Notes under the pieces: generated by a model
The model's input: the letters and a program-made list of their open reading frames with translations, nothing else
Databases searched by the model: none
Told to the model about the DNA's origin: nothing
Shown here: positions 14,621 to 15,642 of the stretch, piece after piece
How positions within the stretch are numbered: position 1 is the stretch's first letter
Layout of the letters: each line of letters begins with the position of its first letter
Made by a program: the position numbers and the translations under genes
Assembly: GCA_030647265.1 (NCBI GenBank)
Contig: JAUSJM010000034.1
Span: 1-58,016, forward strand
DNA length: 58,016 nucleotides
Direction of reading: 5' to 3'
From: a bacterium
GTDB taxonomy: Bacteria > Patescibacteriota > Microgenomatia > Daviesbacterales > UBA10151

Positions 14621-14663
14621 CGCTTTGCGTCATCCTGAGGAGCCATTAAGGCGACGAAGGATC
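14619..14663. repeat. CCTGAGG...CGAAGGA hairpin-repeat copy between infA and rpmJ
   Basis: gacgctttgcgtcatcctgaggagccattaaggcgacgaaggatc. It contains the gacgc/gcgtc mini-hairpin and atcct...aggat ends. Confidence 0.5.
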
Positions 14664-14675
14664 TAGAAAGAATAT

Positions 14676-14792
14676 ATGAAAGTGCAAGCTAGTATAAAAA
14701 CAAGGTGTAAGTTTTGTAAAATAGTAAAACGGGAAGGCATTTTATATGTCATCTGTCCCCGTGATCCAAGACATAAACAAAGACAAGGATAA
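14676..14792 (+). CDS. rpmJ: 50S ribosomal protein bL36
   Basis: Hand translation: [38 protein letters not shown] (38 aa). Below the ORF-track cutoff. Confidence 0.95.
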
Positions 14793-14796
14793 AAAT

Positions 14797-15246
14797 ATGG
14801 AAATATTACAAATGTTACAGAATTTTCAGCAAGGTCCGAAAGATCCGATGGAATTTGGAGCAAGCTGTTTAAAGTCGGCAGAAAGACGGGTAAGAAGTGG
14901 TTGGAATAACAATATATCAATTGTTTTCGCGGATAGAAGTGGGATGCCTCAATTAACAGTTCCGATGATAGATAATAAAGATAATGTTTTAGATTTTACT
15001 GAGGCGGAAGTAGATCAATTAGTAGGAGAGAGGTGGTTACTAGGAGAGCATGGAGAGATTGAGGGCAGATGGGTAGTTTGTGACGGGGGGAGAAAGAAGC
15101 GTGTGTTAGAGTATAATGGTTCTTCGAAAGGTGATTTTTCTTGGATTTTAAGGAAATACACTTTAGATAATAATTCTCTGCTTGCAAGTATTGTCTCAAG
15201 CGTAAGGCTTGAATGGGTAATGATAAGGAGTGGATTATACGCATAA
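14797..15246 (+). CDS. hypothetical protein inserted between rpmJ and rpsM
   Basis: Track ORF is 14746-15246. I prefer ATG 14797 (MEILQMLQNF...), 4 nt after the rpmJ stop with AAGGAT upstream. It ends 3 nt before rpsM. No recognisable domain. Confidence 0.6.
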   Translation: MEILQMLQNFQQGPKDPMEFGASCLKSAERRVRSGWNNNISIVFADRSGMPQLTVPMIDNKDNVLDFTEAEVDQLVGERWLLGEHGEIEGRWVVCDGGRKKRVLEYNGSSKGDFSWILRKYTLDNNSLLASIVSSVRLEWVMIRSGLYA

Positions 15247-15249
15247 AAT

Positions 15250-15642
15250 ATGGCGAGAATTGCAGGAGTAAACCTACCGGATCAAAAAAGAGTGGATATC
15301 GGACTAACTTATATCTTTGGTATAGGACGGTCAAACGTGGTTCAGGTGTTAGAGACAGCTAAGGTAGAAGCTTCCAAAAAGGTCAAAGATTTAACGGAAG
15401 AGGAAATTGGAAGATTGCAGAAAGCGTTGGACCAGTTTAGAGTGGAAGGAGATTTAAGACAGTTTATCAGCCAAAATATCAGAAGACTGGAAGATATCGG
15501 TTCTTATCGGGGGCTAAGGCACAGGAGGGGCTTACCGGTAAGGGGCCAAAGGACCAGGTCCAATTCCAGGACCAGGAAAGGTAAAAGAAAGACGGTTGGT
15601 ACAGTAAGGAAGGAAATTGTAACCAAGGTGGGAAGCAAATAA
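15250..15642 (+). CDS. rpsM: 30S ribosomal protein uS13
   Basis: 130 aa with the [11 protein letters not shown]-terminus. Confidence 0.97.

Follow-up and report, generated by a model that had tools for sequence, protein, structure and literature searches.

The window, by which we mean the whole 58,016-nt stretch of DNA analysed, contains a packed tuf-S10-spc-alpha cluster of ribosomal genes. Within this cluster, an intact plus-strand ORF of 149 aa (14797–15246, hereafter orfX) lies between rpmJ and rpsM, beginning with ATG at 14797 and open to TAA at 15244–15246. The upstream neighbour rpmJ (L36; plus strand, 14676–14792) ends in TAA at 14790–14792, and the 4-nt spacer AAAT (14793–14796) separates this stop from the orfX start. 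The 3′ codons of rpmJ, caAGGAtaa, carry a Shine-Dalgarno-like AAGGA 7 nt upstream of the orfX ATG. On the downstream side, the 3-nt spacer AAT (15247–15249) leads from the orfX stop to the ATG at 15250 of rpsM (S13; plus strand, 15250–15642), the first gene of the ancestral alpha operon, which is followed by tightly packed rpsK, rpsD, rpoA, and rplQ. An AAGGAG is present on the same strand within the 3′ end of orfX (15225–15230), 19 nt upstream of the rpsM ATG. The coordinates given for the ORF in an earlier sequence-only reading (ATG at 14797, stop at 15246, 4 nt after the rpmJ stop and 3 nt before rpsM) were confirmed.

An alternative in-frame ATG at 14746, chosen by one gene caller, would give a 166-aa product overlapping rpmJ. 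The start at 14797 is the likelier one, because all 16 comparable ORFs in relatives begin just past the rpmJ stop, behind AAGGA. An independent assembly, a Logan contig from run SRR13727527, matches 1614 nt across rpmJ, orfX, rpsM, and rpsK with 100% identity, which rules out binning or assembly error as the source of the insert.

Other features of the region were also recorded. A minus-strand ORF of 112 codons (14996–15334), antisense to the 3′ end of orfX and the start of rpsM, has a negative codon score, so that a gene there is improbable. Positions 14706–14722, in the rpmJ coding sequence, and 14803–14819, in the first codons of orfX, form a 17-nt inverted repeat with 82% complementarity, whose folding could enclose the rpmJ stop and the orfX start. 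The infA–rpmJ spacer (14621–14675) contains a small hairpin, TGACGCTTTGCGTCA, and the motif GCGTCATCCTGA, which occurs only once in this genome and also opens the rpmJ–rpsM gap of the relative L037. A second break in the cluster lies at positions 1701–2834 of the window, where 1.1 kb holding only short ORFs separates rpsJ from rplC.

orfX is a protein-coding gene without detectable homologues

In DNA of ~39% GC, a run of 149 stop-free codons has a chance probability near 1e-4 per frame, as estimated from base composition. The codon log-likelihood of orfX is 0.167 per codon, its own frame being the best of six; random open frames score 0.032 ± 0.069 and long ORFs of the genome 0.274 ± 0.075. 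The score of orfX thus exceeds that of random open frames by only ~2 sd and ranks near the 5th percentile among genes of the genome. The codon usage of orfX is gene-like but weak, and orfX is a real, lineage-specific protein-coding gene. The sequence-only reading had described its DNA as more AT-rich than that of its neighbours. This is correct locally (GC 0.387 and GC3 0.32, vs. 0.44–0.48 in the neighbours) but less marked against the genome as a whole, where orfX falls only at the 16th–18th percentile of long ORFs; the codon and GC comparison proposed as a check showed codon adaptation and GC3 to be slightly low.

The predicted product is acidic and soluble. With a pI of 5.5, vs. 10.4–11.2 for L36, S13, and S11, it is indeed not basic in the manner of a ribosomal protein, and it has no hydrophobic stretch of transmembrane type, also as first described. 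That no motif could be recognised by eye is borne out by the lack of any Pfam or NCBIfam match at E ≤ 10. A single-sequence AlphaFold2 model (pLDDT 33) was uninformative.

No homologue of orfX was found across ~15 billion predicted proteins. A word-indexed search of 5.8 billion clusters returned only orfX itself, and phmmer against 1.84 billion representatives returned only two eukaryote-like tandem-repeat proteins, judged spurious on account of their many short matched stretches. The profile searches proposed with the sequence-only reading gave no family match in Pfam, NCBIfam, PHROGs, or PADLOC, and PDB sequences likewise gave none. Searches of phages, plasmids, IMG/VR, GTDB genomes, and JGI metagenomes, and a six-frame search of 40 relatives, detected no homologue. 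orfX is single-copy in its 785-kb genome, in which no DNA-level source was matched; a similarity to PurD (25% identity over 73 aa, E = 0.08) was judged to be chance. orfX is an ORFan, having no detectable homologue outside its own genome.

Expression and translational coupling of orfX

Neither a plus-strand terminator nor a convincing promoter was found inside or beside orfX, and the region has no Rfam match; an RNA element at this position was rejected on these grounds. Having no promoter of its own, orfX would be transcribed together with the ribosomal genes. In insert-free relatives, the AAGGA at the rpmJ end serves rpsM, and where an ORF is inserted it serves that ORF; orfX would likewise borrow this motif, 7 nt ahead of its ATG, as a ribosome-binding site. 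Such a site inside the upstream gene, together with the short stop-start spacers on both sides, is the arrangement of a coupled cistron, and the sequence is consistent with co-transcription and translational coupling of orfX with the ribosomal genes.

Within 4–15 nt upstream of rpsM, this genome has no Shine-Dalgarno-like motif. The nearest, the AAGGAG at 19 nt, is too far for a canonical Shine-Dalgarno interaction, suggesting that rpsM initiation probably relies on ribosomes terminating at the orfX stop. Since this stop lies 3 nt before the rpsM ATG, ribosomes leaving orfX would probably initiate S13 synthesis. If S13 initiation depends on passage through orfX in this way, then the orfX frame would be kept open by selection, whatever its protein does.

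The rpmJ–rpsM seam across the family

Ribosomal-protein operons are regarded as having the most rigid gene order in bacteria and serve as phylogenetic markers for uncultured lineages. We located rpmJ and rpsM in 96 genomes (63 genera) of the family to which the orfX genome belongs, one member of which has a protein named Candidatus Daviesbacteria by NCBI. In most of them the junction is 0–60 nt long, typically caaggaTAAttATGgctaga. A large gap of 298–650 nt is present in 17 genomes from 14 genera, or about one in six genomes; two junctions consisting of a run of N (L013 in G016 and L052 in G046) were counted as small gaps. None of 11 genomes examined from other families of the class has a large rpmJ–rpsM gap.

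Each of the 17 large gaps is filled by a single forward ORF of 72–207 codons. These junction ORFs begin 2–9 nt past CAAGGATAA, which is either the rpmJ stop motif or a leftover copy of it, and end at points from 3 nt ahead of the rpsM ATG to 8 nt into that gene, the 8-nt overlap arising from a TAG within ATGGCTAGA. orfX, starting at +4 nt and ending 3 nt before the rpsM ATG, falls within this definition. With the codon table of the orfX genome, all 17 score best in their own frame. Their products differ widely in length (72–207 aa) and pI (4.8–11.6), and none matches Pfam, PHROGs, or PADLOC, including nuclease, transposase, toxin, and defence families. orfX itself is absent from all 95 other family genomes, its own genome being the only species of its genus in the set, and the closest relatives have junctions of 2–47 nt; this answers the presence/absence check that had been proposed.

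Gaps of intermediate size bear on the question of coupling. Among 16 gaps of 30–176 nt, 12 have no ORF spanning the distance from the rpmJ stop to the rpsM start. Coupling is therefore not obligatory in the family, an obligatory relay at this junction is rejected, and large inserts persist as genes rather than as spacers. The remaining four gaps contain spanning mini-ORFs, of 14 codons in L006 and L009, 9 in L015, and 42 in L049, with endings such as TAATG. They could serve as relays, or could be what is left of larger junction ORFs that have shrunk.

These observations must be weighed against the idea that orfX has no protein function and is tolerated DNA that relays ribosomes through one open frame, its peptide being a by-product or a proto-gene. 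The orphan status of orfX, its weak codon adaptation and low-confidence fold, the poorly spaced site ahead of rpsM, and the mini-ORFs of the four relatives would all agree with this. Yet a few codons suffice for a relay, and 450 nt of useless DNA should shrink in a genome of 785 kb. The 12 gaps lacking a spanning ORF argue that rpsM needs no coupling in this group, and the amino-acid and codon make-up of the junction ORFs is gene-like in 17 of 17. Selection on the protein is also evident in the sole comparable pair, L038 and L039. Between these two ORFs, codon positions 1 and 2 are 57% identical and position 3 is 41% identical, with 4-fold sites near random; the better conservation of positions 1 and 2 indicates that this family is under selection as protein. 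We consider a pure relay unlikely.

Five genomes have a hairpin-rich element of ~80 nt directly 3′ of the rpmJ stop. Four of them carry a junction ORF (L036, L042 with two copies of the element, L045, and L047) and one does not (L021). Copies are 80–89% identical between genera. The element supplies a recoded rpmJ 3′ end (AAACAACGTCAGGGATGA), which pairs with the first bases of the element, and the old rpmJ end (AAACAAAGACAAGGATAA) remains behind it as a fossil before the next start codon. In the four ORF-bearing genomes, the CAAGGATAA preceding the ORF is this leftover copy.

Free-standing homing-endonuclease cassettes are known to insert between conserved genes, as do the seg and mob genes of phage T4 in “intronless homing”. 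The junction ORFs resemble such cassettes in their patchy distribution and in the swapping of cargo exactly between two conserved genes, and the replacement rpmJ 3′ end brought by the hairpin element, with the old end left before the ORF, recalls the recoded duplicates of flanking-gene ends. On this basis, a mobile element that targets the stop-start junction, for instance a cassette of the homing-endonuclease type or a toxin or defence gene, could have left orfX as its cargo or remnant. Unlike homing cassettes, however, neither orfX nor the 16 other ORFs show a nuclease motif or a match to a nuclease, transposase, toxin, or defence family. The orfX sequence contains only one His, and neither a GIY-YIG nor an HNH pattern can be read in it. 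No mobile-element gene, insertion scar, terminal repeat, or significant direct or inverted repeat flanks it, and all that its two borders have in common is TAAAA(A)TATGG, made up largely of stop, spacer, and start; it is present in one copy, and it has no match in phage, plasmid, or viral collections. A mobile-element origin is highly improbable for orfX.

Mostly unrelated junction ORFs and their probable turnover

To assess relatedness among the junction ORFs, we combined BLASTP between pairs, z-scores from shuffling, all-frame tblastx, leave-one-out HMMs, and hhalign. Pairwise alignment z-scores have a median of 0.04, and the only clearly homologous pair is L038/L039, from the same genus (33% identity, E = 5e-27; alignment A2). 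Comparison of the gap DNAs by tblastx and blastn recovered the hairpin element only, with no match between ORF bodies in any frame. A weak helix-Gly motif is common to six short ORFs from six genera (L035, L037, L041, L043, L044, and L045; alignment A4), and for four of the six the leave-one-out HMM scores exceed nearly all of 500 shuffles. L038 scores 3–11 bits against these short-family HMMs. Among 5.8 billion clusters, both small families are restricted to their own members and strain variants of these. AlphaFold2 on L038 with its one homologue reached a pLDDT of 45; like the orfX model, this one is of too low quality to support a search by fold. orfX could be linked to no other junction ORF by BLASTP, z-scores, HMMs, or hhalign: it scores −1.1 to −1.9 bits or goes unreported against the short-family HMMs, with hhalign probabilities of 0.1% against A4 and 0.2% against A2.

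Comparisons between close relatives point to turnover of the ORFs. Within one genus, the ORF of L040 is unrelated to those of L038 and L039, and its flanks are 78–91% identical to theirs, as similar as those of L038 are to those of L039. The well-supported sisters L036 and L042, with flanks 80% identical, carry unrelated ORFs of 149 and 110 aa. L044 has a junction ORF, vs. a 100-nt AT-rich spacer in its sister L053. A weakly resolved tree built from L36 and S13 (47 rows) requires at least 10 changes of presence or absence. On this sequence evidence, it is more likely that genes were repeatedly gained, replaced, and lost than that they diverged in place. Flanking genes of the compared relatives are ~80% identical at the DNA level, with synonymous sites close to saturation, so that divergence in place retains some probability for individual pairs.

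At the level of strains, L037 and L055 (a contig of JGI metagenome 3300025015) differ over 848 aligned nt solely by a 9-nt in-frame deletion inside the junction ORF.

Could a single ancestral gene between rpmJ and rpsM, fast-evolving, often lost, and linked in its role to translation or the ribosome, have given rise to orfX and every other junction ORF? All 17 agree in position, strand, start context, and tight packing, the motif of the six short ORFs and the scores of L038 on their HMMs hint at wider kinship, and L038/L039 demonstrate that divergence to 33% identity is possible within one genus. The near-zero median z-score, the negative HMM scores of orfX and its hhalign probabilities of at most 0.2% against both small families, and the spread of lengths and pI values speak against common descent, as does the case of L040, unrelated to its congeners despite equally similar flanks. 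Very many losses would also be needed to account for the 79 of 96 genomes without such a gene. We therefore regard a single ancestral gene as rather improbable.

Discussion

The explanation that we hold to be probable is that orfX is a lineage-specific cargo gene at a high-turnover rpmJ–rpsM seam that hosts mostly unrelated orphans, gained, replaced, and lost over time. orfX would have entered at the seam where the ancestral spc operon, with rpmJ as its last gene, meets the alpha operon, whose first gene is rpsM. Throughout this Daviesbacteria-type family, the same seam would have received, exchanged, and lost different and mostly unrelated orphan genes. Our best guess is that the orfX protein is a dispensable accessory and not a component of the ribosome.

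The sequence-only reading had offered two interpretations. The first, a lineage-specific ribosome or translation factor, finds no support, given the absence of orfX from all 95 relatives, its acidic product with neither a ribosomal nor any other recognised domain, and the lack of relationship among the genes that relatives carry at the seam. The second, an insertion riding on a strong operon, fits much better, given the lineage-specificity of orfX, its slightly low codon adaptation and GC3, and the recurrent use of the insertion site.

Small gene insertions between the operons of the ribosomal cluster have been described as the typical first step of cluster rearrangement, the inserted genes in known cases from Gammaproteobacteria and Bacilli being metabolic, e.g. 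tusDCB, bfd-bfr, and nrdHEF (PMC8046335). orfX resembles these cases (PMC8046335) in being one accessory gene between rpmJ, the last gene of spc, and rpsM, the first of alpha, and in marking the operon boundary as a permissive spot in an otherwise rigid cluster. It differs from them in being a single orphan ORF fused into a predicted translation relay, and in that the same seam bears about a dozen unrelated orphans across one family of the candidate phyla radiation (CPR). What is new here is the picture of one seam that, within a single family, repeatedly takes in orphan genes unrelated to each other, with high turnover.

Two further likenesses are instructive. With its stop-start distances of 3–4 nt on both sides, a ribosome-binding site inside the upstream gene, and a downstream gene, rpsM, without a well-placed site of its own, orfX is similar to translationally coupled cistrons and relay mini-ORFs. 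Unlike relay mini-ORFs, it is gene-like and, at 149 codons, far exceeds what a relay needs, its coupling being predicted from sequence. Like ORFans and other taxonomically restricted genes, it lacks homologues and domains and is modelled with low confidence. Unlike typical ORFans, its position is fixed and highly expressed, and in relatives other ORFans are found there time and again.

A bolder proposal, which we advance only tentatively and with some doubt, is that the seam works as a gene nursery, or a slot for expression, in which transcription and translation at ribosomal-protein levels would come automatically to whatever ORF lands there. Cargo would pass between related genomes through recombination in the two conserved genes alongside, giving a pool of small, otherwise unknown proteins with fast turnover, orfX among them. 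If this were so, such proteins might come from young or de novo genes, or from genes involved in symbiont-host or phage conflict.

For annotators, the locus is a warning that a “ribosome factor” is not to be read from position alone. With the orfX–rpsM pair, one can ask in a simple way whether delivering ribosomes to the essential gene downstream is enough to make an inserted gene indispensable. In one CPR family, different orphans are repeatedly taken up at the rpmJ–rpsM seam of a rigid cluster, each fitted into the predicted stop-start relay. The entry, expression, replacement, and decay of new genes in very small genomes can be studied there at a well-defined locus that is comparable between genomes.
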